This document shows, piece after piece, positions 11,044 to 59,680 of a DNA stretch of 64,000 bases. Position 1 is the first letter of the stretch. Each line of letters begins with the position of its first letter. The notes under the pieces are model-generated. The model was not told the origin of the DNA. It saw only the letters and a program-made list of their open reading frames with translations, and made no database searches. The translations under genes and the position numbers were made by a program. This DNA comes from Candidatus Latescibacterota bacterium (lineage in GTDB: Bacteria > Krumholzibacteriota > Krumholzibacteriia > WVZY01): assembly GCA_011772205.1 (NCBI GenBank), contig WVZY01000076.1, forward strand, positions 114,567 through 178,566, read 5' to 3'.

Positions 11044-13032
11044 GTGGATGCAAAGCGACCTCCAGCGCTGACTTCGCCTTGGAAAATCGGCTTTCTCGTT
11101 TCACTGCTACTTATTTTTCTAAGCGTCGGCGTGAACTACATGCTTTTTAGAATATTTCACCTATCGTGGAGCTGGATTGGATTAGAGGAAGGGAATTGGT
11201 TCTTCAACAAGGATCGATTTGTTCGTGAAATGTTCCCGCTCATGGCCCTCATTGCCCTCGCCTCACTCATCGCTTATTTTGCGATTACGTCGGCGGTTCG
11301 AAGGTACAAAGCTTATTTGGATTCCGGACATGATTATCGGAATCTCATAACAATGGTCAAAGGGATCAGAGATCTCGACGACGAGAATGTTATCAGAAAA
11401 TTAAGCAAGTATCCGGAGCTTCGTGATTTTCTTAGAAACGTGCGAGAGCAAGCCAAGGAAAGAGATCTAGCGCTTGCCGAACGTGAAGATGCTGTTGCCG
11501 AAAGAGAGCAGCAAAATGTTTCCTCTGATCTCATCAGAAGAGAAAGCGAATCGCTTGCGCGGGCGATTTTGGAGTTGTCGGATGGCGGATTAATCGGAGA
11601 CGTGAAAACTACCGTTCCGGATCTCATGCCAATTGAGAAAGCAATCCACGGGCTTGCAAACTCGGGTGGTGCCCAACCTGGAGCCGTTGACCTAGGAAAA
11701 CTTCATGGCGTGCGTAAGGACGTCGATGAAGCGATCAAGTATTTGAAAAGCCGCTTGGCCGAAAGCTCAAAAGAGCACAAAGCGAGCTGCAGCGTTGCTC
11801 AGGAGATCGAAAATCAGTTATCCCAGCTGAATGCAGTTCTGGCCAGCACGGGCGGGGTAACTCCCGCGGGAGCGGGCGGTACCGATTTCACTGGACTGGT
11901 CCAGTCGATGGATACGATAGAGCGGCTGTCCCTGGTTCTTGCAGATCTTGGCGAAGAAGCCAAGGGCATCGCAATCAATACGGCGCTGCAAGCCGGGTCG
12001 GGCGAGGGGGCGGTGGCAGATCTCATACAGTTGGCTGAAGATGTCCGCGGTGTCGCGTTGAAGTTTACGGACATGGCCCAATCCTATCAGGAAGCAATCG
12101 AACAAATGCGCAAGTCGATGGCGGGCGTGGAAGCTTCACGAGCAACGCCCGCTGGGGAATGCGAAGAGGGCCGGAATGTCGCACAGGTAGCTTCCGCGCT
12201 CAAAAGTAAAGTCTCACTGTGGGTCGAGCGCATGGTAGTCCTTTCGGATCAGATCAAGAACGTCGAGAAAAGCTTGGGACTAACGTTTGGGCCGCTCCAA
12301 GAAAAACTGGCCAACCTCAGAGAAGAGGGTGCGAAGCTGAGCGTGGAACCGACTGGCAAAGAAAGAGCGGCTAAGGGTCTCCAAGTGGAGACAGCTGGAG
12401 GCGGCTCGCCTGAGGAAGATCTGCAGGTAGAGACGAGCGCACCGCCGGGACTCGAACAAACAAAATCCGCTTCTACGGTGTTTTCCCAAATGGGAGCTCC
12501 CTCTCAAGACATACCAGGCCTCGAGAGCAATACGGGTCAGGTTTTCGACCAAGAGCCTAAAGAAGGGGAGATGTTCGCCGAACTCTCGAAGGCGGATTCA
12601 ATCGAGAAAGATGAAGACGTAACGTTCGAAGAAATCTCGTCGGAGAAGCTGGAAAAGCAGCGGGGAACGCCTTTGCGGCGTAAACGGCAGGACCCATCTG
12701 AGAGTGAACCGCCAGAAGAGACGATTGCAATAGAGCCTCCCAGCTCAGGATCCCCACTTGGAGGTCCTGCGGGCGAGGATACTGCGAGCGCTGATACATT
12801 CGAGGGAAAGATTGCTTTTGATCTGAGCAAAGCTACTGGATCCGAAGCCCAAGATTCTGAGGACTCGGAAGGCATGTACGACCACAACGCATTCTCATTT
12901 GAGGACATGAAAACAGCGGGGCGGCAGCAGATCCCAGCACAGAAGGCCGATTGGAAAGGTGCATTAGATGGTGCAACGGATGAAGAAGAAGTCATCGATC
13001 TTTACGAGCTCGGCGCTGTGGATTTCGTTTAG
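11044..13032 (+). CDS. membrane protein with a degenerate MCP-like signalling (hairpin-tip) segment and an acidic low-complexity tail
   Basis: GTG start with an AAAGGAGAT ribosome-binding site. Two N-terminal TMs with only a ~15-aa loop, so no sensor domain. Coiled-coil regions follow. The segment GIAINTALQAGSGEGAVADLIQLAEDVRGVALKF resembles the MCP consensus [31 protein letters not shown]. The C-terminal ~200 aa are D/E/S/P-rich. Confidence 0.55.
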   Translation: MDAKRPPALTSPWKIGFLVSLLLIFLSVGVNYMLFRIFHLSWSWIGLEEGNWFFNKDRFVREMFPLMALIALASLIAYFAITSAVRRYKAYLDSGHDYRNLITMVKGIRDLDDENVIRKLSKYPELRDFLRNVREQAKERDLALAEREDAVAEREQQNVSSDLIRRESESLARAILELSDGGLIGDVKTTVPDLMPIEKAIHGLANSGGAQPGAVDLGKLHGVRKDVDEAIKYLKSRLAESSKEHKASCSVAQEIENQLSQLNAVLASTGGVTPAGAGGTDFTGLVQSMDTIERLSLVLADLGEEAKGIAINTALQAGSGEGAVADLIQLAEDVRGVALKFTDMAQSYQEAIEQMRKSMAGVEASRATPAGECEEGRNVAQVASALKSKVSLWVERMVVLSDQIKNVEKSLGLTFGPLQEKLANLREEGAKLSVEPTGKERAAKGLQVETAGGGSPEEDLQVETSAPPGLEQTKSASTVFSQMGAPSQDIPGLESNTGQVFDQEPKEGEMFAELSKADSIEKDEDVTFEEISSEKLEKQRGTPLRRKRQDPSESEPPEETIAIEPPSSGSPLGGPAGEDTASADTFEGKIAFDLSKATGSEAQDSEDSEGMYDHNAFSFEDMKTAGRQQIPAQKADWKGALDGATDEEEVIDLYELGAVDFV

Positions 13033-13062
13033 ATTTGAGCTGATAAGCTTTTGGAGGAGTAC

Positions 13063-15141
13063 ATGAAACCCGCCCTAGACAGCCTCGGATTGTTTATCGC
13101 GCAGGTTAAGCAGCATGCAGCAGCGCTCACCGAACTCTTGACGAAGGGCTCGAGTGTCGACCAGGCAAGCGACCTGATGGAAAGGTGTATCGTCTCGACC
13201 ACTATGCTTGCGGGCAGCACATCGGTCATGGGATTAGAAAGCTGGCAGGATTGCTTATCTGCTTGCGAAGCCCTGCTATCTCGCTACCGCAGTCTTTCGC
13301 TCCCGTGGGATGAGAAAATCGCCCAAGTGCTTTCCGAGTTGATCGAGAAAGAGGATCTGCTTGTGTCAGCCCACGCTGGCGGCGAGATTGGTGACCTGTC
13401 CTCCATCGTGTCCGCAGAAGAGATTCAGGCGTTGCTGGAGGAGGCCAACGTATTGCTCGATACCGAACCGGTTACTGTAGCTCCCGAGGCGGATTCGAAG
13501 CCGGAAGGGGGATCGGCGGGGGGCGGGCGGAAATCCACGGGAACCGGGATTGCAGCGGAAATGAGTGGGGAGGCAGGCGCAGCGGAGAAAGCTGCAGGAA
13601 TTGATGCGAGTCAGAGGGCATTCCTAGCTGGAACGACAGCGTCTCTCAAGAAAGCCGCCAATTCTCTGTTCGATGGATTGTCGGTCATTCAGGGCGACAG
13701 GGGCGAAATATTGGATGGCTCGCTCATGGACATTCGCAAGCAGCTTTGTCTCCTTAGTTTTTTTGCACGCTCAATGGGTGGGATATTGAGGCAAGACTCA
13801 GGCGAAAATCTCCACACGGTCACATCATCGCTCGAGCCTGCAAAAGTGGCGCTTAAAGATTACGCGGGCGGTCTCTGCAGGAGCGGGGAGAGACATGTTG
13901 ATATTGCTTTCGGGGGCACTCAAAATGAAGTGGATGCAGGTCTACTTTTCCATATCGAGCGAGTGCTTCAGTGGATGATTCACGATGTATACGTTCGATG
14001 CGAAGAACCTCATCTCAAAATCGATGTCGAGGTCAGTGAGAAAAACGGGGCGCTGTGGTGGAAAGTGAGAGATAACGGGGAGAACTTCATAACAAACTCG
14101 AGAGTAGACCATGATGAGTTACTGGCATTCTATCCCTCCCTCAAGGAGGTTCGCAAAACACTCCAACATCTAGAAGGCGTCTTATGGGTTGAGCCCGATG
14201 AAAACCACGACACCCGTTTTGCATTCTCGACGCCTCTGTCCAAGGAGCAGATTAGATTCTTGGTCTGGGGTAAAGGGGAGAAAAGCTTCGCAGTTCTTTC
14301 AACACAATTCTGCACGACTTTGCAGGTAGAGTCTACTTCGGTCGAGTGTGATTCGAGAGGAGAACATTTGGTAATAGACGACCGCAGAGTTCCGTTAGTG
14401 AGATTGGAACTCGTCTACCCCGAGGCGCCTGGAGAAGGGAATGAGATCGCAGTCATAGGGGCTGTTGAAAAGAGAGTTGCATTTTACGTGGAGGGTGAAG
14501 GGCGACACGAGGAAGGTCTCTGGTTGAAGGACGCCATACCGTTGTGGAAAGGGCTTCCCAGTGGGGTGGCTCAAGTGGGACGCCGGAGAATCCCGCTCAT
14601 TGAAGCAAAGGATCTGTTGGAGAGATATCTATATGCCTCGGAAGAAGCTGTTGAAGCGGAAGTTTCTGGAGGAGTGGTACAAGAAGACAAGGATCTTTCC
14701 CAAGCTCAGGCAACGCTGGAGAAAGGTTCTCCATCTCCTCCAGAACTAAATACAGAGGGAAAAGAGGTCGATGTGCTCGTGGTGGAGAGAAGTGATGCCG
14801 TGAAGGAGGCGTTCGAGTCTGTATTAGCAAGAGGGAATTACAGAGCGAAAGTCGTGGGTAAGCTTGATGAGGCGATGGAGATCATAGAAAACAGCACTCC
14901 GCGTCTCATCATTAGCGAGTTCCGAATGCCTTCGATGGCGGCGAAGAAACTAACACAGGCCTTAAGGAAGGAAGGCAAAAACATCCCCGTGCTGGTGACG
15001 ACATCTCACTCAGGGGCCAATGCCGAGCTCCTCGTAGAGAAACTGGGTGTTTCAGGCTACCTCAGCAAGCCCCTCGATGACGACGCCGTTTATGCGAAGG
15101 TCACTGACATTCTGCGAGAGGAAAACGGTTCCGGCGAATGA
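13063..15141 (+). CDS. CheA-like protein with degenerate HPt, HATPase and receiver-like domains (putative pseudo-histidine kinase)
   Basis: ATG preceded by GGAGGAG. HPt-like N-terminus where the phospho-His position reads RCIVSTTMLAGSTSV instead of RAAHSIKGGAG. Kinase-core-like stretch HIERVLQWMIHDVYV…KVRDNGENFI…GVLWVEPDENHDTRFAFSTPL, against the CheA N, G1 and G2 boxes ending …GTxFxIxLPLT. A CheW-like region follows. The C-terminal receiver-like domain has E where the phospho-Asp should be (LIISEFRMP). Confidence 0.55.
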   Translation: MKPALDSLGLFIAQVKQHAAALTELLTKGSSVDQASDLMERCIVSTTMLAGSTSVMGLESWQDCLSACEALLSRYRSLSLPWDEKIAQVLSELIEKEDLLVSAHAGGEIGDLSSIVSAEEIQALLEEANVLLDTEPVTVAPEADSKPEGGSAGGGRKSTGTGIAAEMSGEAGAAEKAAGIDASQRAFLAGTTASLKKAANSLFDGLSVIQGDRGEILDGSLMDIRKQLCLLSFFARSMGGILRQDSGENLHTVTSSLEPAKVALKDYAGGLCRSGERHVDIAFGGTQNEVDAGLLFHIERVLQWMIHDVYVRCEEPHLKIDVEVSEKNGALWWKVRDNGENFITNSRVDHDELLAFYPSLKEVRKTLQHLEGVLWVEPDENHDTRFAFSTPLSKEQIRFLVWGKGEKSFAVLSTQFCTTLQVESTSVECDSRGEHLVIDDRRVPLVRLELVYPEAPGEGNEIAVIGAVEKRVAFYVEGEGRHEEGLWLKDAIPLWKGLPSGVAQVGRRRIPLIEAKDLLERYLYASEEAVEAEVSGGVVQEDKDLSQAQATLEKGSPSPPELNTEGKEVDVLVVERSDAVKEAFESVLARGNYRAKVVGKLDEAMEIIENSTPRLIISEFRMPSMAAKKLTQALRKEGKNIPVLVTTSHSGANAELLVEKLGVSGYLSKPLDDDAVYAKVTDILREENGSGE

Positions 15142-15336: not shown

Positions 15337-15558
15337 ATGAGCAAGTGGAGAGAATCTGATTATTCCAGCATTATCATCGGCGGCGAGGATGCGGATGTCG
15401 TGATGACTTCGGTGGAAGCAGCAGAGTATCTCAAGATGCATGTCAAAACGGTTTGTAGGCTTGCAAAAGAGAAGAAAATTCCTGCGAAGAAGGTGGGCAG
15501 TGAGTGGAGGTTCCTCAAGAGCGTTTTGGATAAATGGCTTGCCCAGGAGGTGGTCTAG
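15337..15558 (+). CDS. excisionase-family helix-turn-helix DNA-binding protein
   Basis: About 74 aa from the internal Met, with an AAGGATGG ribosome-binding site. The TSVEAAEYLKMHVKTVCRLAKEKKIP segment is typical of HTH_17/Xis-type domains. Confidence 0.55.
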   Translation: MSKWRESDYSSIIIGGEDADVVMTSVEAAEYLKMHVKTVCRLAKEKKIPAKKVGSEWRFLKSVLDKWLAQEVV

Positions 15559-15632: not shown

Positions 15633-17465
15633 GTGCCAATGGCCAAAACGGTCATAGAGAAAGTCCCTTCAAAAAGCTCCGGTGTAACAGTATTTAAAAT
15701 CACCGGCACTCTCGGTTTCCACGAAAAAGAGAACCTTATCAAGCTGTTTGATGAGTGCGAGAAGCACGGGATTAGCAAGCTCGTAATGGATTTTTCCGAG
15801 TTGACATCACTTGGAGGAGGGTGCGCCAAAATCATTCGCGAAAAGGCCGATTCGGGGGATTTCTTCATCGGTGTGGCAGGTGCATCGAAGACGACTCTGA
15901 AATTCCTACGTAATGAAGATGAGCCAGGGCGTGTTCGCTTCGCATCGACTGTAGAGGAAGCGATGGAAGAGATCGGAAGCGGATCTGGCGAGGAAGTCGT
16001 TGTGGAGCACCCCGCGAAAAAATCCGCTTCAACCTCCGCGGCTAAGAAACAGAAAGCCAAGAAGCTCCAAGCGAAGGAAAAAGAACCCAAGGTGTCGGCT
16101 CGTGTGGAAGCTGATCACGCGAAAGAGGATGAGATTGAAAAGCATGAAACCGATGGAGCCAGATCCGAGGCACAAAATCGCACCGCACCTGATACCGGCG
16201 ACAATGGACTACCGAACGTGATCTGTCTCGGCCACGACGCCAACGGCGTCGTGAGCGAAGAAAGCACGGGAGAGCCCGTCGACGAGTGGTACGCTGATGC
16301 GCCTGTGCCGGGTCTGGAGGGGGCGCCGATCGAGGAGAAATCGGCGGATCTCGAAAAATCATCGGATAGGAAGCTCAAGAGAAGGTTGGTGCAATATAGC
16401 TCGCTTCTCTCGATCAGCTCGGATTTCAACCGAATCATGGAGAAATCGAAGCTTCTGGACACGATTCTTCTTACCACGATCGCCCAGGTTGGCGTGGAAT
16501 CTGCAGCCTTCTTCGAATACCGGGAGGATGGGCTCGAGCCGATCGCGGCGAAGGGGATCGAACTCGAACAGTGCACCCCGCTGGTTCTCGAAGGGACAGG
16601 GGATGGACGCATCTGGGAAGGTGATGAAATCTTGGAGATGTCTGATTCTCCGATCGAGGAAGAGTCCAAAAAGAAAGCCCTGTCATCGGGATTTGCTTGG
16701 GCGGCTCCTGTGATCATTTATAACGAATTCAGAGGGCTTGTTCTGATCGGCAAGCCAATCAAAAAAACATTAAACGAGGATTCGCTCGAAGTTCTGAACA
16801 TAATTGTCCGGCAAGCCGCAGTTGCTTATGAAAACACCCGCCGTTTCGAGGAAGAAAGTGAGCGAATCCTTGGTCTGGTCCAGAGTCTTATCTCGCTCAT
16901 CGAGGAGAGAACCCTTGCGAGGGGCAACACGTCGCTCATCGCAGGTCACTCGTATATGCTCGCAAAAAAGATGCACTACCCGGACGAGCTCATCAAGGAT
17001 CTGATGTTCGGCGTGGTACTTCGAGACATTGGGATGATCAAGGTGAGCGACCTCATTGTAAGGAGTCCCAGGGAGCTCGGTAAGGAGGAGTGGGAGATTA
17101 TCAAGAGGCACCCAATCGACGGTGCCGACATGCTTAGGAAGATGAAGTTCTCGGACCACGCCGTCAAGATTGTCCTGTGCCATCATGAGCGGTATAACGG
17201 CGAGGGTTATCCGAATCAATTAAGGGGCGGTGAGATTCCTCTCGGCGCCAGAATCGTCTCGGTCGTAGAGAGTTATGGGGCGATGTTGCAGGACCGTCCG
17301 ACAAGACCTGCGCTGACGCGCGAAGAGGCTTTGAACACTTTGAAGGAAAATTGGGGGATGCGATACGACCCTGAGGTCGTCGAACAATTCGTCGAGATCA
17401 TCGAAGAAGAAATACGCACGGGAGAAAACAAACAATACATGAGCAGCGAATTTTTCAGCGTCTAG
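15633..17465 (+). CDS. STAS–GAF–HD-GYP domain protein with a substituted HD motif
   Basis: N-terminal STAS/anti-sigma-antagonist-like domain, a long acidic linker, a GAF domain, and a C-terminal HD-GYP (HHERYNGEGYP). The usual LHDIGK reads LRDIGM, and the upstream His motif is not obvious. Confidence 0.7.
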   Translation: MPMAKTVIEKVPSKSSGVTVFKITGTLGFHEKENLIKLFDECEKHGISKLVMDFSELTSLGGGCAKIIREKADSGDFFIGVAGASKTTLKFLRNEDEPGRVRFASTVEEAMEEIGSGSGEEVVVEHPAKKSASTSAAKKQKAKKLQAKEKEPKVSARVEADHAKEDEIEKHETDGARSEAQNRTAPDTGDNGLPNVICLGHDANGVVSEESTGEPVDEWYADAPVPGLEGAPIEEKSADLEKSSDRKLKRRLVQYSSLLSISSDFNRIMEKSKLLDTILLTTIAQVGVESAAFFEYREDGLEPIAAKGIELEQCTPLVLEGTGDGRIWEGDEILEMSDSPIEEESKKKALSSGFAWAAPVIIYNEFRGLVLIGKPIKKTLNEDSLEVLNIIVRQAAVAYENTRRFEEESERILGLVQSLISLIEERTLARGNTSLIAGHSYMLAKKMHYPDELIKDLMFGVVLRDIGMIKVSDLIVRSPRELGKEEWEIIKRHPIDGADMLRKMKFSDHAVKIVLCHHERYNGEGYPNQLRGGEIPLGARIVSVVESYGAMLQDRPTRPALTREEALNTLKENWGMRYDPEVVEQFVEIIEEEIRTGENKQYMSSEFFSV

Positions 17466-17477
17466 AGGTGAATAGTC

Positions 17478-19043
17478 ATGCAAGAAGATATCCTCGTCGT
17501 CGATGACGATCCGGATGTTCTGGACATTCTAAGCGAAACGCTCAATAAGCGGGGTTATAACGTTGTGGTTGCCCTGGATGCGCAGTCTGCGCTCCGGTCT
17601 TTCAAGCGGAAGCAACCCAGCCTCGTGATCCTGGATATCATGCTGCCGGATATGGACGGCTTGGAGGTCTTCAAGCGGATGCGCGCAGACCAAGCGGATC
17701 GCTACATTCCGATCCTCTTCCTCTCGTCTAACGGCGATCTGGAGACAAAGCTAAGCGGATTCGATATGGGGGCGGAAGATTACCTGGTAAAGCCGGTTTC
17801 GCTGAAGGAATTGAATGCTAAGATCGGGAAGATTCTAAAACGCACGTCCCAGGCCCAGGCGCTCTGGGAAGAGCGCGAAGCGTTGGAAACGGAAGTAACG
17901 AAGGAGCATGAGAATTACATTCATATCAATAAGCAGCTAAAGAAGCAGGTCCTCGCTATGAAGACGCTTTTTTCCATATCGCAGGACCTGACCCGCATCC
18001 TCGAACTGGATGAATTGATCAATGCCTTTGCACTCACGATTGTTGGAGAGCTGAGAATCTCGAGTATGGCGTTTTTCGCCCTGGTGAGCGAGAACAGCAA
18101 GATCCTCAGCCTACGGGGAGTCAAAGGTTTCCGAAAGGAGAAATTCGCAGGTCTTGAAATACCCAGAGACTGTGCCTTCGTTGAATGGCTGGGAACCCGG
18201 GCCAAGCCCAAAAAGATAGTGAGGAGCAACGACCGCACGTGGGTCAAGCGACTTCCAGACATCCGGTTGGCTGCTTTCGAGTACGCAACGCCAATCATGA
18301 TCAAGGACAAGATGAGAGGAATCGTTTTCACAGGGCCAAAGCTGAGCAGGGATGATTACACACCATATGACCTCGATATGCTGCAGTTCATTTGCAACTC
18401 CGCTGGAGTCGGTATGGAGAATGCACGATTGTTTAAAGAGCTTCAGACAACGTATCTATCAACGGTAAAAACGCTTGTTTCCATTATCGAAGCGAAGGAT
18501 AGCTATACGAGGGGCCATACGGAACGGGTTGCGGAGTACGCCATAGCGATCGCAGAAAGAATGAATCTTCCCCAAGAGGAGCAAAGGCGGATCGCATTCG
18601 GTGCGGTCCTTCATGATATCGGTAAACTCGGGGTCCTGGAAAAAGTCCTCAATAAAAAGGAGCAGTTGGATACTGAGGAATGGAAGATATTGAAAGCCCA
18701 CCCCGAAGTCGGAGCCAGCATCATCGAGAATATGGAGTTCCTTACGGGAACGGTAGAACTGGTGCGGCATCACCATGAAAACTGGAATGGGAAAGGTTAC
18801 CCGGATGGGTTGAAAGGAGAGGAGATCCCAATTGGATCGAGAATCATTGCAGTCGCAGATGGCTTCGATGCAATGACAACAGATCGTCCCTACCGTAAAG
18901 CGCTAAAATGGACCGAAGCCCTCTCGACAATCAAGGAAGGCTCCGGCATCCAATACGATCCCGAAGTTGTGCGGAGCTTCGAGGAGATTATCAGAGACAA
19001 GAACTTCAGAAAACGAATGAGAGAAAAGCATTCCAATCCATAA
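17478..19043 (+). CDS. response regulator with GAF and canonical HD-GYP phosphodiesterase domains (RpfG-like)
   Basis: REC domain (VVDDDPD…LVILDIMLPDMDG…K). HD-GYP motifs are intact: YTRGHTERV, LHDIGK, HHHENWNGKGYP and AVADGFDAMTTDRPYR. GAGGTGA ribosome-binding site. Confidence 0.85.
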   Translation: MQEDILVVDDDPDVLDILSETLNKRGYNVVVALDAQSALRSFKRKQPSLVILDIMLPDMDGLEVFKRMRADQADRYIPILFLSSNGDLETKLSGFDMGAEDYLVKPVSLKELNAKIGKILKRTSQAQALWEEREALETEVTKEHENYIHINKQLKKQVLAMKTLFSISQDLTRILELDELINAFALTIVGELRISSMAFFALVSENSKILSLRGVKGFRKEKFAGLEIPRDCAFVEWLGTRAKPKKIVRSNDRTWVKRLPDIRLAAFEYATPIMIKDKMRGIVFTGPKLSRDDYTPYDLDMLQFICNSAGVGMENARLFKELQTTYLSTVKTLVSIIEAKDSYTRGHTERVAEYAIAIAERMNLPQEEQRRIAFGAVLHDIGKLGVLEKVLNKKEQLDTEEWKILKAHPEVGASIIENMEFLTGTVELVRHHHENWNGKGYPDGLKGEEIPIGSRIIAVADGFDAMTTDRPYRKALKWTEALSTIKEGSGIQYDPEVVRSFEEIIRDKNFRKRMREKHSNP

Positions 19044-22662: not shown

Positions 22663-23451
22663 TCACGTAGCGGAGGCAGGGCTCGGGACGGTTTCTTCCG
22701 TTCCCAAGCCGAAGTTCTTGAGCAAGTCGTTCCTGAGGGTTTTCGTATCGATCTTCCGCTTTAGCTTTCCTCCCTGTGCATATGCGATGGTTCGTGTTTC
22801 TTCCGAGACCACGATGATGATTGCATCGGTCTCTTCGGATAAACCGAGGGCGGCGCGGTGACGTGTGCCGAGGGTTGCGGATAGCCGCTGGTCTTGTGTC
22901 AAGGGGAGAATACATCCCGCTGCGACAACCCGATCGTTCTGTATGATCACGGCGCCGTCGTGCAGGGGGCTTGGGGGGGTGAAAATCGTTTCTAGAAGCT
23001 CCGCGCCCACTTTAGCGTCGATTTTGGTGCCGGTTTCCACGTAGTTTTTCAAACCCATATCCTTTTCCAAAACGATGAGCGCGCCAAGCCCTTTCTCGGT
23101 CAGGTGGGTGCACGCTTTGATGATTTCGGGGATGATCCCGGTCTCTTCCACTCTAAAGTATCGGCGAAGAAAGCTGTGCTGCCCGATGGAAGCGAGGGCC
23201 CGGCGCAATTCGGGCTGAAAAATGATGACGAAAGCGATGACCCAAACCGTCTTGAGGCTCGAAATGATCCAGTTCAGCGCGATGAGGTTGATCCATTGGG
23301 CAGCTACGGAGAGGACGAAGAGGATAATGAGCCCGATGAACATGTGCACCGCTCGGGTTCCCTTCATCAGAATGAAAAGCCTGTAGAGCAGATAGGACAC
23401 GACCAGGATGTCGAGTATGTCGATTATTAGATCTGTAGAAATGAAGCCCAT
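22663..23451 (-). CDS. cdaA: diadenylate cyclase (c-di-AMP synthase)
   Basis: Three N-terminal TMs plus a DAC domain (DGAVII…, LGTRHRAALG, and the RTIAYA-type motifs). Confidence 0.88.
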   Translation of the reverse strand: MGFISTDLIIDILDILVVSYLLYRLFILMKGTRAVHMFIGLIILFVLSVAAQWINLIALNWIISSLKTVWVIAFVIIFQPELRRALASIGQHSFLRRYFRVEETGIIPEIIKACTHLTEKGLGALIVLEKDMGLKNYVETGTKIDAKVGAELLETIFTPPSPLHDGAVIIQNDRVVAAGCILPLTQDQRLSATLGTRHRAALGLSEETDAIIIVVSEETRTIAYAQGGKLKRKIDTKTLRNDLLKNFGLGTEETVPSPASAT

Positions 23452-54946: not shown

Positions 54947-57900
54947 CTATTGCATTCTGTCGTAATCTCTTAAACGCACATACAGCGTTGGCTTGGTGAT
55001 ACCGAGAAGCTCGGCTGCCTTGGTCTTTCCTCCCACAAAATCGACCATTTTTTTGGCGAGAATGGGCTCGACTTGCTGAAGCAACGGGTTGGCTTTGGAG
55101 TAGGTGCTTCGCTCGATGATCTGCTGGATGAGCGCCTCGAGGCTTTTGTGCGGCTGGCCTCCCGATTCGGATACCTTTTCCAGGAAGTCCTCAGGCAGTG
55201 AACCGGGATGAATCACGTCGTCATCGGATAGCAACACGATTTGTTCGATTAAGTGCTGGAGCTCCCGCACGTTTCCTTCCCATGGGGCTTTCTGGAGAAT
55301 CCTTATTGCGTCCGGAGCAATTGTCTTTCGGAGTACTCCGCTTTCAGAGCATCGTTTTTCCAAATAATCCAGCGCGATGGCAACGATGTCTTCTTTTCTA
55401 TCGCGCAGAGGTGGTATCCGGATTTGAAGGACGTTCAACCGGTAATATAAATCCTTTCTGAACTTTCCCTGCTCGCAGAGTTCTTCCAGGTCTTCATTGC
55501 TGGCCGCGATGATGCGAACATTCGAATGGATCTTTTTCGTTCCACCGACGCGATTGAAGCTCTTGCTTTCGAGGAAGTTCAGTAGCTTTGTCTGTATCGT
55601 CATCGGAATGACATTGACATCGTCGAGAAAAACCGTCCCCCCGTCCGCTTTCTCGCACAAACCGAGTTTGCGCGCCACTGCGCCGGTGAAGGCACCTTTT
55701 TCGTGTCCGAAGAGCTCACTTTCGAGAAGGCTTTCGGGGATCTGAGCACAGTGGATGTCCTGGAACACCTTGTGGGATCTGGGGCTGTTGTAATGAATTG
55801 CCCGCGCAAGCTCCGTTTTGCCCGTGCCGCTTTCGCCGATGATGAGGATACCGGTGTCTATGTCCTTGACTTTTTCGATGGTCCGGAAAATTTTTCTCAT
55901 CGATTCACTCTTGCCGATGAGGTTCTCGAAGCGGTACTGATCTTCGACCTGCGCTTTGAGGGCCACGACTTCCTCCACCAAGCGTTCCTCTTTGTGAACG
56001 TGCTCTTCGAGATGGAACATCAGCGTCAAGATCCCGGAAATATGTCGACCAAGGGCTGTGAAAAAGTTCAAGTTGTCTTTTGAAACGGGGAGCGAATCCT
56101 GAGGCATATAGAAGAGGAGGCACCCCAAATCTTCCCTTATTGCTTTGAGCGGGATACACACAAATCCTCCCCCTCCCACATCAATCTGGGGTGCGAGATC
56201 CAACGCGTCTGGTGAGCTGCTTTCCAAAACGCGACCCAGAAGGAGCGTTCTGTTCATTAGTTCCGTCAGGCCCTCATCCTGAAGAGATTTCTCCCTGCCT
56301 CCCGCGTCGATAACAGCGAATCGACCGTCTTCTCTCTTGAGAATGAGGCGGCATTCGTCGGGACCAATGATATTCCGGGTGAGGTCCAGAATTCGTCTGA
56401 AGCACTCATTCCTGTCGAAGGGGGGTTCGAAGAGCAGGCTGAGCTCGTAAAAGGCTTTGAGGAGATTCTGGGTTTGGCTCCCTGCGATGTAGGTCCGCGC
56501 AGGATGCGCCCTGATCTCCTCACGAAGAGTGATGATCTCCTCCGGAACCTCATGACCGAAGTCTGAGTGGATCTGGCGCTCTGCCCTGTCCAGGTATTGC
56601 ATCGCGTCGAATGTGTTGGCGCCGCGAGCGTGAAGGAGCCCAATCTTCGCGAGCGCCGCTGCAGCGAGACGGTTGTTCGATAATGTTGTAAAGGCGCTCG
56701 CAGCTTTTTCATAGTATTCCAGCGCCTCCATCAGCTTGTTCTGCTCTGTTTCCAGGTCTCCCAATATCATGTTGATTTGCGCGCTCTCGTATTTTGAGCC
56801 GATCAGCGTGGCGAGCTCCGATGCTTTTTCAACGTGCTCTCGTGATTTGGCATACATTTTCTGCGTGAGGTAGAGGGTGGAAAGCCGCCTGTGAGAGCCA
56901 AGCTCTACGTTTGTCGATCCGAGTTCGCGCGATATTCGTAGGGAGTCCAGAAAGTATTTTTCGGCTTCCAGATATTGATCCCGGACGGTGGCAATAGCTC
57001 CCAGCGTGTTGTAAATCTCTGCTGTGAGCATGGCTATGCCCAGCTTGGAGCTGATTGCCATGCTGTCCATGCACCGTTTTTCCGCTTCCTCATAATCGTG
57101 CATTTCATAAGAGAGAAGGGCGAGATTTAGGTAAGCGGCGGCTATTCCCACCCGATTGTTTTGCCGCTGTTTGATCTCGAGGCTCTTTTTATAATATTCG
57201 AGAGCTTTATCGTATTCACCTTTGGTTTGATAGGCGAGGGCAAGGTTGTTGTAGCTGCCCGAGAGCGCATTGATGTCGCCGGCGTTCTCTCGGAGCATGG
57301 CGCTCCTGTTGTAGTATCGGATTGCCTCGTCATAACGGCTCGTGTTGAATTGGACCACTCCTGTCAGGTTGAGTGCCTGGGCAACGATGAGCGGGTATTG
57401 ACTCGGATTGAGAGTTGTGAGACTGAGCTTGCAGCACTCGAGGGAATTTTCATAGTTGCCAAGGCGGTAATGGAACCAGCCGATATCATTTAGAAGCTGC
57501 GCCTGCTCTGGCAGCGGGAGCGCTGACTGAAGCTCTTCCCTGACGGCACTGAGAAGGTCGAGGGATCTCTTGTATTCTCCTCTGGACTCCCAGGTATCGG
57601 CCAGCAAACGGCATATGCTGCTTGCGATCTCTGCGTTCTCGCGCCTACCCTCGATTCCCACCTCATCGAGGTTTTGCTTGGCAGTGAGCAGCAAGTTTTC
57701 GGCCTCCCCTGACCGTCCCTTGTCGATCAGATCGATGCTCGCCTCGCGGAGAATAAAGAGCTTGTCGGCTATGGCAAGCGCCTTGTGAAGTCCTCGGTGA
57801 ATGAGTTTCATGCAGTGCTCGAGAATGAGCGCATCCCTGTTGTCACGCCTCGTCTCTCTCAGATAGGACACGCAGTGCTCCGCGGCAAGATGTGTTTCCT

Positions 57901-59680
57901 CCCCTTCCAAAAGGTGGTGGACGAGGAATAGCGCAGGGAAAGCGCTGCGCTCTTCAACATGAAGAGCCACAGTGCGGTGGAGGTTTCTTCTTCTCTCCGG
58001 GGGAATGCTCCGATAGACCAGACGCCGAATCGAAGCGCTTTTCGGGCTGAGCAGGATCGAGACACCTATGCCCGTCCCGTTGGAACGGTATGAAATGCAT
58101 ATCAAATCCAGCGCTGCAAGGCGGTGGATGCACCTGTGGATTTTGCCATCAGATCCAGGAAAAATCGAAAGGGCAATCTGCAGTGGTATCGCAAACTGTG
58201 CAACTGAAACGAATTCCAGGAGTTGCCGTTCTTCTTCCATGAGGCAACCGAGGACTTCTTCGGTCAACCGCTCGAGGGAAGAGGATTTGAATGGACGGTG
58301 GTCGGGTTCGAGGTAACGGACAATACCATTCAAGTATGCTTGCAGCCGGACGGACGGGTGCTCTGCTCTCGTCGTGGTTACGCCGGGCGGGTGCTTGTGG
58401 TGCTCCGGGACGGGCGTCTCTAGCTTATCTGCTGAATCGGATTCATGATACTCGGCAGGCAGATGGAATTCGTGAACTCGCTCTCCGAATTTCCCTTTCA
58501 AGTGATCGATAAAAGCGCTCGACTCCTTCGAAACTCGTGCTGGGTCGATCGTCAGGAGCAGGAGCGTTTCGGAAAGACTGATGTCCTCCTCTAATCTTTT
58601 GGAGATACGGGAGCAGGTCAACGCCCGATCCGTTGCATCGTCAATGATCCACAGGAATTTCGAAGAAGCAGCTCCTTTGGGAACCGTTTTCTTTCTGGTC
58701 TTCCCGGTTATATTCCACTCGTCGGGCCAAAGAACCGTCCAACCACCGTTTTCCGGCAGCGATAGTTTTTCAGCCGCCAATTCAACGATCGTGCTCTTGC
58801 CGGAAAAAGCTTCCCCCTTCAGTACGATGAGGCGGTGACCTTCGGAGACGGCATCGAGCGCATCCTGCACCAAGATTTCCGCCTGCAATGCCGGAAACAT
58901 TTCGGCACGAGAAACGGAGAACGGTATGAGCTGCTGCGGCAAGGGTTCACCGAAGAGTTTCTCGTGCAGAGCCGATAGCGTAACGGTGCTGCCGGATTCG
59001 ATACTGGATCCGGATTCCATAATGATATTCATGAACTCGTCTTCTTGCTGCAATGCCGCGATTGCACCCTTCTTGCGGAGCGGTGCCAGCAAATGTATGA
59101 AACGGGAAATGGCGCGCGGGTGGATGGAAATGGTGGCAGGCAACGTGAGTGCAGTGCTTTTCGATAGTTGAGCCTGGGTGTCGGCTTCGACCTTCGCTGG
59201 ATCGTGCCCACCAGATAACGCAAAAGGAAGTATATAGGCGTTGGGGAGGATGAAAATTCTATTATCCTCGTCAACTCCGATAGAGGCAGGGGACAAGTGG
59301 GGAGCGAAGAAATTGTAGTTTTCCAAATGGGCCAGCGTTTCGATGAGCGTTCTGATCATTTCCTCAAGCGGCAGAAAATCTTGTGGAATGTTTTGGAGCA
59401 GCCGCAAATAGGGCGTGAAAAGTTCGATGCCTCCGTCCGCACTCGTCGCGAAAAGAATTTGCGGGCAATTCGATGGAGAGATTGCCGAAGCGCTGCTGCC
59501 CAGGAATTCGAGGACACCGGGATCAACTGTCGTTCGGTTGATCGTTTGGGTGCGGAGTCGGAGGAATTTTCTTTCGCTGACCAGATCGACAAAAGCGGCG
59601 ATTCGCCAAATTCCGGCCTGGATCTCTTCTTCGATTTGTTCGAGGTTTTTCTGGTAGGGATGGGTGGAACGCATCTCCAT
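54947..59680 (-). CDS. giant multidomain sigma-54-dependent transcriptional activator
   Basis: 1577 aa. N-terminus shows a kinase-like catalytic-loop/DFG pattern with HRD and DFG replaced (…HLSPASIGVDEDNRIFILPNAYI…). Then P-loop Walker A GEAFSGKST and Walker B FLWIIDD, a long TPR array, and a GAF domain. The sigma-54 interaction domain has GESGTGKE, ESELFGHEKGAFTGA and an arginine finger. C-terminal Fis-type HTH (AELLGITKPTLYVRLR). Confidence 0.75.
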   Translation of the reverse strand: MEMRSTHPYQKNLEQIEEEIQAGIWRIAAFVDLVSERKFLRLRTQTINRTTVDPGVLEFLGSSASAISPSNCPQILFATSADGGIELFTPYLRLLQNIPQDFLPLEEMIRTLIETLAHLENYNFFAPHLSPASIGVDEDNRIFILPNAYILPFALSGGHDPAKVEADTQAQLSKSTALTLPATISIHPRAISRFIHLLAPLRKKGAIAALQQEDEFMNIIMESGSSIESGSTVTLSALHEKLFGEPLPQQLIPFSVSRAEMFPALQAEILVQDALDAVSEGHRLIVLKGEAFSGKSTIVELAAEKLSLPENGGWTVLWPDEWNITGKTRKKTVPKGAASSKFLWIIDDATDRALTCSRISKRLEEDISLSETLLLLTIDPARVSKESSAFIDHLKGKFGERVHEFHLPAEYHESDSADKLETPVPEHHKHPPGVTTTRAEHPSVRLQAYLNGIVRYLEPDHRPFKSSSLERLTEEVLGCLMEEERQLLEFVSVAQFAIPLQIALSIFPGSDGKIHRCIHRLAALDLICISYRSNGTGIGVSILLSPKSASIRRLVYRSIPPERRRNLHRTVALHVEERSAFPALFLVHHLLEGEETHLAAEHCVSYLRETRRDNRDALILEHCMKLIHRGLHKALAIADKLFILREASIDLIDKGRSGEAENLLLTAKQNLDEVGIEGRRENAEIASSICRLLADTWESRGEYKRSLDLLSAVREELQSALPLPEQAQLLNDIGWFHYRLGNYENSLECCKLSLTTLNPSQYPLIVAQALNLTGVVQFNTSRYDEAIRYYNRSAMLRENAGDINALSGSYNNLALAYQTKGEYDKALEYYKKSLEIKQRQNNRVGIAAAYLNLALLSYEMHDYEEAEKRCMDSMAISSKLGIAMLTAEIYNTLGAIATVRDQYLEAEKYFLDSLRISRELGSTNVELGSHRRLSTLYLTQKMYAKSREHVEKASELATLIGSKYESAQINMILGDLETEQNKLMEALEYYEKAASAFTTLSNNRLAAAALAKIGLLHARGANTFDAMQYLDRAERQIHSDFGHEVPEEIITLREEIRAHPARTYIAGSQTQNLLKAFYELSLLFEPPFDRNECFRRILDLTRNIIGPDECRLILKREDGRFAVIDAGGREKSLQDEGLTELMNRTLLLGRVLESSSPDALDLAPQIDVGGGGFVCIPLKAIREDLGCLLFYMPQDSLPVSKDNLNFFTALGRHISGILTLMFHLEEHVHKEERLVEEVVALKAQVEDQYRFENLIGKSESMRKIFRTIEKVKDIDTGILIIGESGTGKTELARAIHYNSPRSHKVFQDIHCAQIPESLLESELFGHEKGAFTGAVARKLGLCEKADGGTVFLDDVNVIPMTIQTKLLNFLESKSFNRVGGTKKIHSNVRIIAASNEDLEELCEQGKFRKDLYYRLNVLQIRIPPLRDRKEDIVAIALDYLEKRCSESGVLRKTIAPDAIRILQKAPWEGNVRELQHLIEQIVLLSDDDVIHPGSLPEDFLEKVSESGGQPHKSLEALIQQIIERSTYSKANPLLQQVEPILAKKMVDFVGGKTKAAELLGITKPTLYVRLRDYDRMQ

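Follow-up and report, generated by a model that had tools for sequence, protein, structure and literature searches.

HD-GYP domains are considered to hydrolyze cyclic di-GMP (c-di-GMP) by means of a hydroxide that one or two metal ions in the active site activate. The existence of inactive or receptor-type members of this family, such as DvhD, PA2572 and HnoD, is established. Here we describe two adjacent open reading frames, ORF1 and ORF2, found in a stretch of 64,000 nucleotides from a Candidatus Latescibacterota bacterium (GenBank assembly GCA_011772205.1, contig WVZY01000076.1, positions 114,567 to 178,566 of the forward strand; this whole stretch is called the window). ORF1 fuses a STAS domain to an HD-GYP domain with an altered metal center, and ORF2 carries a canonical HD-GYP domain. 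Both lie on the same strand, and both were found where an original prediction made from the nucleotide sequence alone had located them.

The solved structures closest to ORF1 and ORF2 are those of V-cGAP3, PmGH, PA4781, DvhD and Bd1817. PmGH from Persephonella marina (PDB 4mcw and 4mdz; PMC4159591), a GAF-HD-GYP protein, is an active tri-iron enzyme and the best match to ORF1 in sequence and fold over both domains. Its likely nucleophile is a hydroxide that bridges the M-H metal pair, and single alanine replacements of H189, H221, K225, D183 and D308 each abolished the activity or cut it as in metal-ligand mutants, while the E185A and D305A substitutions only lowered it (PMC4159591). A c-di-GMP complex of PmGH was obtained with iron at the G-site alone, and the c-di-GMP in those crystals was intact (PMC4159591).

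DvhD from Desulfovibrio vulgaris (PDB 9rbz and 9rc0; PMC13090378) resembles ORF1 in having the HD-GYP fold without the full set of catalytic metal ligands. It binds c-di-GMP with sub-micromolar affinity, with no metal and no turnover, and it signals through a dimeric stalk. DvhD has lost HD (SQ) and HH (MN) and binds its ligand metal-free, whereas ORF1 keeps the D, H, HH and E of a full single-metal site; judged by its residues, the ORF1 site is not of the DvhD metal-free type. The contexts differ as well, since DvhD is a dCache-TM-PAS-HD-GYP protein of a Lap-like adhesin system and ORF1 is a cytoplasmic STAS-GAF-HD-GYP protein encoded in a chemosensory-like cluster. PA2572 from Pseudomonas aeruginosa (PMC3411652), a REC-YN-GYP protein, is an inactive HD-GYP variant with a regulatory role that is encoded beside, and binds to, PA2573, which is similar to methyl-accepting chemotaxis proteins (MCPs). 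It differs from ORF1 in its YN in place of HD, in its REC input, through which the contact is made, and in having no STAS domain, CheA-like gene, tandem active paralogue or helix-turn-helix (HTH) protein. A third precedent is HnoD of the HnoD/HnoB pair of Shewanella oneidensis, summarized by Galperin and Chou (bioRxiv 10.1101/2021.11.05.467447) as a degenerate HD-GYP protein that does not hydrolyze c-di-GMP and inhibits a partner phosphodiesterase. As that summary presents it, HnoD differs from ORF1 in that HD (SE) and HHE (QLE) are both lost, the partner is an EAL enzyme rather than an HD-GYP paralogue, and it has no STAS domain.

The HD-GYP domains of ORF1 and ORF2

Relatives of ORF1 were compared in two sets. 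The homologue set comprises 120 full-length database proteins with 44-62% identity, apart from an identical protein, P0001. The locus set comprises 52 loci from species-representative genomes (identity down to 38%), which together with the window make 53. The features of the gene pair, in window coordinates, are:

15633..17465, plus strand: ORF1, 610 amino acids from a GTG codon (likely start ATG 15639, 608 amino acids); STAS, disordered linker, GAF and altered HD-GYP ('RD-GYP')
15639..15980, plus strand: ORF1 STAS domain, with invariant G-x-L-G and L-G-G-G loops and no aligned phosphoserine
15981..16364, plus strand: ORF1 linker, disordered, rich in E, A and K, variable in length and sequence; predicted local distance difference test (pLDDT) below 50 at residues 117-234
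16365..16847, plus strand: ORF1 GAF domain, which aligns with that of PmGH and matches GAF domains in fold
16875..17432, plus strand: ORF1 altered HD-GYP domain, with N432, R464-D465, M468, H493, H517-H518-E519, G525-Y526-P527, E546 and R555-x-T557-R558
17022..17036, plus strand: codons for R464-D465-I-G-M468, the changed HD..K motif, with R and M fixed in 120/120 homologues and 53/53 loci
17466..17477, plus strand: spacer of 12 nucleotides between ORF1 and ORF2, containing the Shine-Dalgarno sequence AGGTGA
17478..19043, plus strand: ORF2, 521 amino acids; REC, GAF and canonical HD-GYP of the 'Y' subgroup

The ATG at 15639 is the most likely start of ORF1 because the identical 608-residue protein P0001, annotated as coming from a Candidatus Latescibacteria bin, starts there. 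ORF1 belongs to the HD-GYP family by sequence and by fold. Pfam HD_5 was matched at residues 422-582 (108 bits, E 5.2e-31), the PDB sequences matched included 5z7c (E 5e-26) and 4mcw (E 2.5e-22), and the AlphaFold model (mean pLDDT 79, about 95 at residues 1-115) matched 4mcw in Foldseek with an E value of 3e-15, the DvhD structure 9rbz being the third-best structural match (E 1.7e-9, template modeling (TM) score 0.70). In ORF2 the HD_5 match covers residues 332-497 (148 bits, E 3.9e-43) and REC residues 5-116 (E 5.9e-29); its GAF match is weak. The two proteins are paralogues that share 34% identity across approximately 360 residues of the GAF and HD-GYP domains.

Active-site residues were put in register through ORF2 and an ungapped HMMER alignment to PmGH, anchored at the motifs and using the published PmGH numbering. 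The correspondence is:

PmGH D183: ORF2 D341, ORF1 R426 (N in the family)
PmGH E185: ORF2 Y343, ORF1 L428
PmGH H189: ORF2 H347, ORF1 N432
PmGH H221 and D222: ORF2 H379 and D380, ORF1 R464 and D465
PmGH K225: ORF2 K383, ORF1 M468
PmGH H250: ORF2 H408, ORF1 H493
PmGH H276, H277 and E278: ORF2 H432, H433 and E434, ORF1 H517, H518 and E519
GYP motif: ORF2 G440-Y441-P442, ORF1 G525-Y526-P527
PmGH D305: ORF2 D461, ORF1 E546
PmGH D308: ORF2 D464, ORF1 G549 (A in the family)
RxY[K/R] motif: ORF2 R-P-Y-R, ORF1 R555-P-T557-R558

ORF1 therefore reads L-R464-D465-I-G-M468 at the LHDIGK position and R-G-N432 at the RGH position. The original prediction had noticed the LRDIGM and the missing upstream His motif correctly, but beyond the change of HD to RD it had under-counted the replacements, which include D305 to E546, D308 to G549, D183 to R426 and the Tyr of RxY to T557. 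Four of the seven shared metal ligands are kept in ORF1 and three are replaced, while all seven are present in ORF2; the equivalents of K225, D183 and D308 are likewise all replaced in ORF1 and all kept in ORF2 (K383, D341 and D464). The ligands retained by ORF1 are exactly those of the G-site, D222, H250, H276 and H277 (D465, H493, H517 and H518). ORF1 shares with PmGH these ligands, GYP and the basic RxxK/R residues. It differs from PmGH in lacking E185, H189, H221, K225, D183 and D308, in the Glu that stands at D305 and in the extra N-terminal STAS domain. A metal-ligand His retained at a shifted position, which would have refuted the original prediction, was not seen: no conserved His was found near R464 or N432, and the only family-wide His residues are H493, H517, H518 and a family-specific H509 (17157..17159), which is conserved in 50 of 53 ORF1-type sequences eight residues before HH, at a position where ORF2-type domains have Gly or Ser. 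The alignment with PmGH shows that the putative metal site nearest GYP is complete in ORF1, and that the ligands of the M and H metal positions and the catalytic Lys/Asp pair are gone. It is very unlikely that ORF1 works as a conventional c-di-GMP phosphodiesterase, because it lacks H189, H221, K225, D183 and D308, each of which is needed in PmGH.

The replacements are fixed. E546, like R464 and M468, is invariant in both sets of relatives. D465, H493, H517, H518, E519 and GYP are invariant among the 120 homologues, and in the locus set the five single residues are kept in 52-53 of 53 and GYP in 52 of 53. Position 432 is N, S or T, and never His, among the homologues; the H189 equivalent is without His in 52 of 53 loci, with N, T, S, Q and L found across the clade. 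Fourteen positions are fixed but differ between ORF1-type and ORF2-type domains, and five of these 14 are functional in PmGH. Most of the nucleotide contacts persist: L482, Y526, M551, R555 and R558, which are common to DvhD (L577, Y621, M646, R650 and R653), PmGH and the ORF1-type domains, are found in 52-53 of 53 loci. Both basic residues of RxY[K/R] are present in 53/53 ORF1-type sequences, and its Tyr, the stacking Tyr652 of DvhD, is replaced by T, N or S in 53/53. DvhD E668 aligns to ORF1 N573, a position not generally conserved among HD-GYP domains.

Over the same 45 genomes the mean pairwise identity was 70.5% for the altered HD-GYP domain versus 60.9% for the domain of the intact paralogue, and it was 47% for STAS, 44-46% for the GAF domains and 23% for the linker. 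Because the replacements are fixed and the domain is more conserved than that of its intact paralogue, the altered domain is not decaying; its residues describe a redesigned site with one complete metal site. The proposal of an inactive or receptor-type HD-GYP agrees with the absence of five PmGH-essential residues and with the DvhD precedent, but the word 'degenerate' is misleading for a domain conserved in this way.

The architecture extends beyond the close relatives. All 120 homologues carry STAS and the RD..GM motif. When the ORF1 HD-GYP domain was searched exhaustively against 1.84 billion representative proteins, 38 of the 150 best matches carried RDM at the HD..K positions. A second tier of RDM proteins, with 45-55% identity and lengths of 460-800 amino acids, also has R, M and E fixed and places STAS first, followed by GAF domains; STAS was significant in Pfam in three of 10 scanned and sub-threshold in two more, and some of these proteins are named 'anti-anti-sigma regulatory factor' in their sources. 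Judging from these proteins, the STAS-GAF-'RD-GYP' arrangement reaches deep and has been stable. Nothing relevant came up in the literature under 'RD-GYP', or under Latescibacteria combined with c-di-GMP.

The second gene had been described as a complete catalytic HD-GYP, and all the motifs are indeed present in ORF2: H347, H379-D380, K383, H408, H432-H433-E434, G440-Y441-P442, D461 and D464. The ORF2-type signature YHHDKHHHEGYPDDY was found in 47 of 48 complete homologues, and the REC catalytic residues D9, D10, D53, S83 and K105 are conserved in 51/51. The authors of the PmGH study predicted that HD-GYP domains of the 'Y' subgroup are binuclear (PMC4159591). ORF2 combines REC with a full HD-GYP domain as RpfG-type proteins do, with GAF inserted between them, an arrangement noted by Galperin and Chou. 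The best-supported reading of ORF2 is that of a predicted phosphorylation-controlled c-di-GMP phosphodiesterase. No GGDEF cyclase or histidine kinase was found in the window.

The STAS domain and the conserved gene cluster

ORF1 alone scored 18.8 bits against the Pfam STAS model, below the 22.6 cut-off. The assignment was accepted despite this score because three lines of evidence agree: 24 of 25 family N-termini matched PF01740 (best E 7.6e-11), a profile of the family STAS retrieved only SpoIIAA-type antagonists and SulP STAS domains from the PDB, and residues 1-115 of the ORF1 model superposed on SpoIIAA with TM scores of 0.76-0.78 and root-mean-square deviations of 2.6-2.9 Å (0.76 and 2.6 Å for 1tid_B). 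The N-terminus of ORF1 is a genuine SpoIIAA-like STAS domain, so the fusion recognized in the original prediction is real. It had also been called an uncommon combination, and a published survey of HD-GYP architectures contains no mention of STAS.

ORF1 and ORF2 are the last two genes of a cluster of five, in the order MCP-like gene A, CheA-like gene B, small HTH gene, ORF1 and ORF2, and A, B and HTH were found upstream wherever the contig reaches. In all 52 reference loci an ORF1-type gene is directly followed by an ORF2-type gene. The pairing of an enzyme with an altered paralogue was thus seen correctly, but the pair is not the whole unit, its MCP-like, CheA-like and HTH context having been missed, and it is not obligatory, since two lineages lack the tandem HD-GYP. 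The upstream members of the cluster are:

11044..13032, plus strand: gene A, MCP-like, with two transmembrane segments, almost no periplasmic loop and a long acidic disordered tail
13051..15141, plus strand: gene B, CheA-like, with helical bundle, hairpin, HATPase-like, CheW-like and REC regions
15337..15558, plus strand: HTH_17 protein of 73 amino acids (Pfam HTH_17, E 1e-13)

Pfam and NCBIfam matched nothing in gene A and, in gene B, REC alone; a profile of gene B also found only REC in the PDB. A family profile of gene A matched MCP signaling domains (2ch7, E 1.8e-11) with the hairpin-tip motif aligned. Its C-terminal peptide, DL[YF]ELGAV[DE][YF], is kept, and sometimes duplicated, in the most distant loci; this peptide recalls the C-terminal tether peptides of chemoreceptors. 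Comparison of gene B with a real CheA-REC protein in hhalign gave a probability of 99.3% and an E value of 1.7e-20, with a gap at the G2 box and ATP lid, and the best folds for its AlphaFold2 model (pLDDT 82.5) were those of CheA in core signaling units (E 2e-14). The conserved His on helix 2 of the bundle is missing, the G1 box is degenerate, the G2 box and lid are deleted, the N-box Asn is Asp in 40 of 41 sequences, and Glu occupies the REC phospho-acceptor position in 32 of 41. From these residues, gene B looks catalytically dead, a scaffold rather than a kinase. In the Krumholzibacteriota branch gene B is shorter and shows no REC match.

The HTH_17 protein is the most conserved product of the cluster, with 79-95% identity in 46 loci where its neighbors have 25-60%, and 71-82% in the most distant loci where its neighbors have 21-45%. 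Its only relative in the PDB is a weak match, 6ama, a small DNA-binding protein resembling MerR. The HTH_17 protein is a candidate for the output of the module. An Rfam scan of the window detected four tRNAs only, away from the cluster, and no riboswitch or other RNA element near it; scans for promoters and terminators did no better than on shuffled sequence.

Some loci show which of these associations can come apart. In one Latescibacterota genome (bin977, CP070631.1, locus L043:8543-11116) the RD-GYP protein has an unrelated N-terminus of approximately 490 amino acids in place of STAS, with a signal-peptide-like start and no Pfam match. In that locus A, B and HTH do not occur upstream, and the canonical REC-GAF-HD-GYP gene is still directly downstream. 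STAS co-occurs with A, B and HTH in every sufficiently long locus, and this sole STAS-less variant is without all three. Among the six distant lineages the pair is intact in three (L057, L058 and L059) and probably in a fourth (L060), where the gene downstream extends to the end of the contig and only the signature's first half is visible. STAS therefore goes with A, B and HTH, and RD-GYP goes usually, not always, with a canonical paralogue.

The whole neighborhood is syntenic with the window across loci: alpha/beta hydrolase, CN hydrolase, the cluster, cdaA, folP, ftsH and tilS. For this reason the cluster is indicated to be vertically inherited. The c-di-AMP synthase gene cdaA (22663..23451, minus strand) lies 3.6 kb downstream on the opposite strand, and its synteny, shared with folP, ftsH, hpt and tilS, holds in nearly all loci; a functional c-di-AMP link through it was considered and judged to be probably background synteny with folP-ftsH-tilS. 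Elsewhere in the window, 54947..59680 (minus strand) encodes a protein of 1577 amino acids with a STAND-type NTPase, many TPR repeats, a sigma-54 activator AAA+ domain and a Fis-type HTH.

In overall composition the cluster can be compared with the Wsp system, in which WspA is an MCP, WspE a CheA-REC hybrid and WspR a REC-GGDEF protein. In each, an MCP-like receptor is encoded together with a CheA whose C-terminus carries REC and with a c-di-GMP enzyme fused to REC. The cluster differs in that its CheA-like protein is seemingly kinase-dead with a pseudo-receiver, its output enzyme would degrade rather than make c-di-GMP, CheW, CheR and CheB genes are absent, and it contains in addition a sensor fused to STAS and an HTH protein.

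Possible functions of the pair

The reading that we favor, with slightly better than even confidence, is that ORF1 is a non-hydrolyzing, single-metal nucleotide sensor or regulatory subunit and ORF2 a working, phosphorylation-controlled c-di-GMP phosphodiesterase. The precedents of DvhD, HnoD and PA2572 support a receptor or regulatory role for ORF1. ORF1 would bind c-di-GMP or a close relative (pGpG or cGAMP) without cleaving it, the fixed Arg464 and Glu546 filling the space and the charge of the missing metals, and binding would alter the GAF-stalk-HD-GYP dimer as it does in DvhD. The signal could then follow two branches. One would lead to ORF2, through a heterodimer of the paralogous GAF-HD-GYP cores or through a shared local pool of c-di-GMP; the other would use the STAS domain, tethered by a long flexible linker, to reach the MCP-like and dead CheA-like scaffold and ultimately the HTH protein. 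We infer from the co-occurrence of the genes that ORF1 and ORF2 form a heterodimer, that STAS docks on the scaffold and that the HTH protein is the output; none of the three is a result.

Several observations weigh against this reading. The G-site and HHE are strictly conserved in ORF1, yet they are dispensable in DvhD, a proven receptor, and keeping them could point to a metal that takes part in chemistry or acts as a sensor. None of the 53 close relatives has the stacking Tyr of RxY[K/R], so affinity and specificity for c-di-GMP may differ; the deeper STAS-GAF-RD-GYP clade retains this Tyr, but often has Leu at R314. Two lineages (L053-55 and L056) keep STAS-GAF-RD-GYP and the upstream genes without the tandem HD-GYP, and the regulation of ORF2 therefore cannot be the sole function of ORF1. 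In the first of these lineages a REC-EAL gene (L053:18128-19348, minus strand) lies approximately 6 kb downstream of STAS-GAF-RD-GYP, and it might provide the missing phosphodiesterase function.

The alternative that survives best is that ORF1 is still an enzyme. It would have a mononuclear His3-Asp site with Arg464 as an electrostatic catalyst and act on another or related substrate (pGpG, cGAMP or another nucleotide), or it would use N432 and E546 to hold metals that prefer oxygen ligands. The invariance of the G-site ligands, HHE and GYP across very deep divergence, in what is the most conserved part of ORF1, goes beyond what a binding module needs, since DvhD has lost these residues. The replacements are chemically specific rather than random (His to Arg, Asp to Glu, Lys to Met), His509 is a conserved residue particular to the family, and the changed RxY motif suggests a changed recognition of the substrate. 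However, the likely nucleophile of PmGH bridges the M-H metal pair, the part of the site that ORF1 has lost, and the PmGH crystals with the G-site metal only contained uncut c-di-GMP. In addition, the variation at the H189 equivalent leaves no conserved ligand there, and with K225 and D183 the proposed general-acid pair is gone. We consider an altered enzyme unlikely; the retained metal site leaves a similarly small share of probability to chemistry or to metal or redox sensing by the ORF1 domain taken together.

The original prediction had also pointed to a partner switch. In its classical form, a Ser of the STAS domain would be phosphorylated by a kinase of the RsbW/SpoIIAB type and dephosphorylated by a PP2C enzyme, gating the binding of the HD-GYP-like domain to ORF2. 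The fold and profile of the domain are of the SpoIIAA type, and its invariant residues cluster in two loops of the SpoIIAA partner face, G-x-L-G and L-G-G-G, all of which fits such a switch. Contact control of c-di-GMP enzymes by STAS or STAS-like proteins is known in trans from HsbA-HsbD, and SpoIIAA/RsbV and HsbA act in trans through a Ser/Thr kinase and a PP2C phosphatase. SiaC-SiaD (PMC8457831) is a partner-switch system of the same kind, in which SiaC too acts in trans. The STAS domain of ORF1, in contrast, is fused in cis. The phosphoserine of SpoIIAA lies in the DSSG loop, where helix 2 begins; in the alignment it falls within an insertion that is absent here, the family having S-L-G-G-G instead, and the nearest Ser is Asn in two of 120 homologues and Ala in a distant member (L058). 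No RsbW/SpoIIAB-type (HATPase_c_2) kinase and no PP2C/SpoIIE phosphatase was found among 45 scanned proteins of the 64-kb window, and none in the conserved neighborhood or the called genes of the six distant loci; the only nearby GHKL-type domain is that of gene B, which has no ATP lid. A classical phosphorylation-driven switch is unsupported, since the phosphoserine is not aligned and the window has neither kinase nor phosphatase, and we regard it as improbable. A role of the STAS domain as a docking module is plausible.

The idea that ORF1 is a decaying, functionless duplicate of ORF2, to which its paralogy and its several replaced catalytic residues might have pointed, is refuted by the conservation data, as the ORFs are intact and full-length in more than 170 sequences from at least two phylum-level lineages, with the replacement residues fixed and the altered domain more conserved than the active one.

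The favored reading of ORF1 as a sensor can be extended to all five genes, although we consider this extension unlikely. The cluster would be a phosphorylation-independent derivative of a chemosensory array, in which the MCP-like membrane protein, with its C-terminal tether peptide, and the dead CheA-like scaffold, with its pseudo-receiver, hold the STAS-fused, single-metal RD-GYP sensor, with STAS docked on the lid-less GHKL domain as SpoIIAA is on SpoIIAB. The sensor would read the local level of c-di-GMP, or metal or redox state at its lone metal, and control the BldC-like HTH protein, and the REC-GAF-HD-GYP protein would reset the signal. If this were true, the cluster would represent a way, not described before, of connecting a chemoreceptor scaffold with transcription and the sensing of a second messenger; so far it seems restricted to bins of the Latescibacterota and Krumholzibacteriota types, where its inheritance is vertical.

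Significance for the HD-GYP family

HD-GYP domains are the less-studied class of c-di-GMP phosphodiesterases, and the few non-catalytic members that have been characterized all show wholesale loss of the metal site. What appears unusual in the ORF1 family, from the aligned residues, is that half of the metal center is replaced by fixed Arg, Met and Glu, while one metal site stays complete and most nucleotide contacts persist. The altered domain is under stronger constraint than its active paralogue. If ORF1 binds c-di-GMP, it would define a metal-containing subclass of receptors that can be recognized by sequence (RDxGM...HHE...GYP...E), and many proteins now labeled 'c-di-GMP phosphodiesterase class II' or 'anti-anti-sigma factor' could be better annotated. 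The cluster is also an example, tractable by heterologous expression, of the reuse of chemosensory hardware for other kinds of signaling in phyla without cultured representatives.

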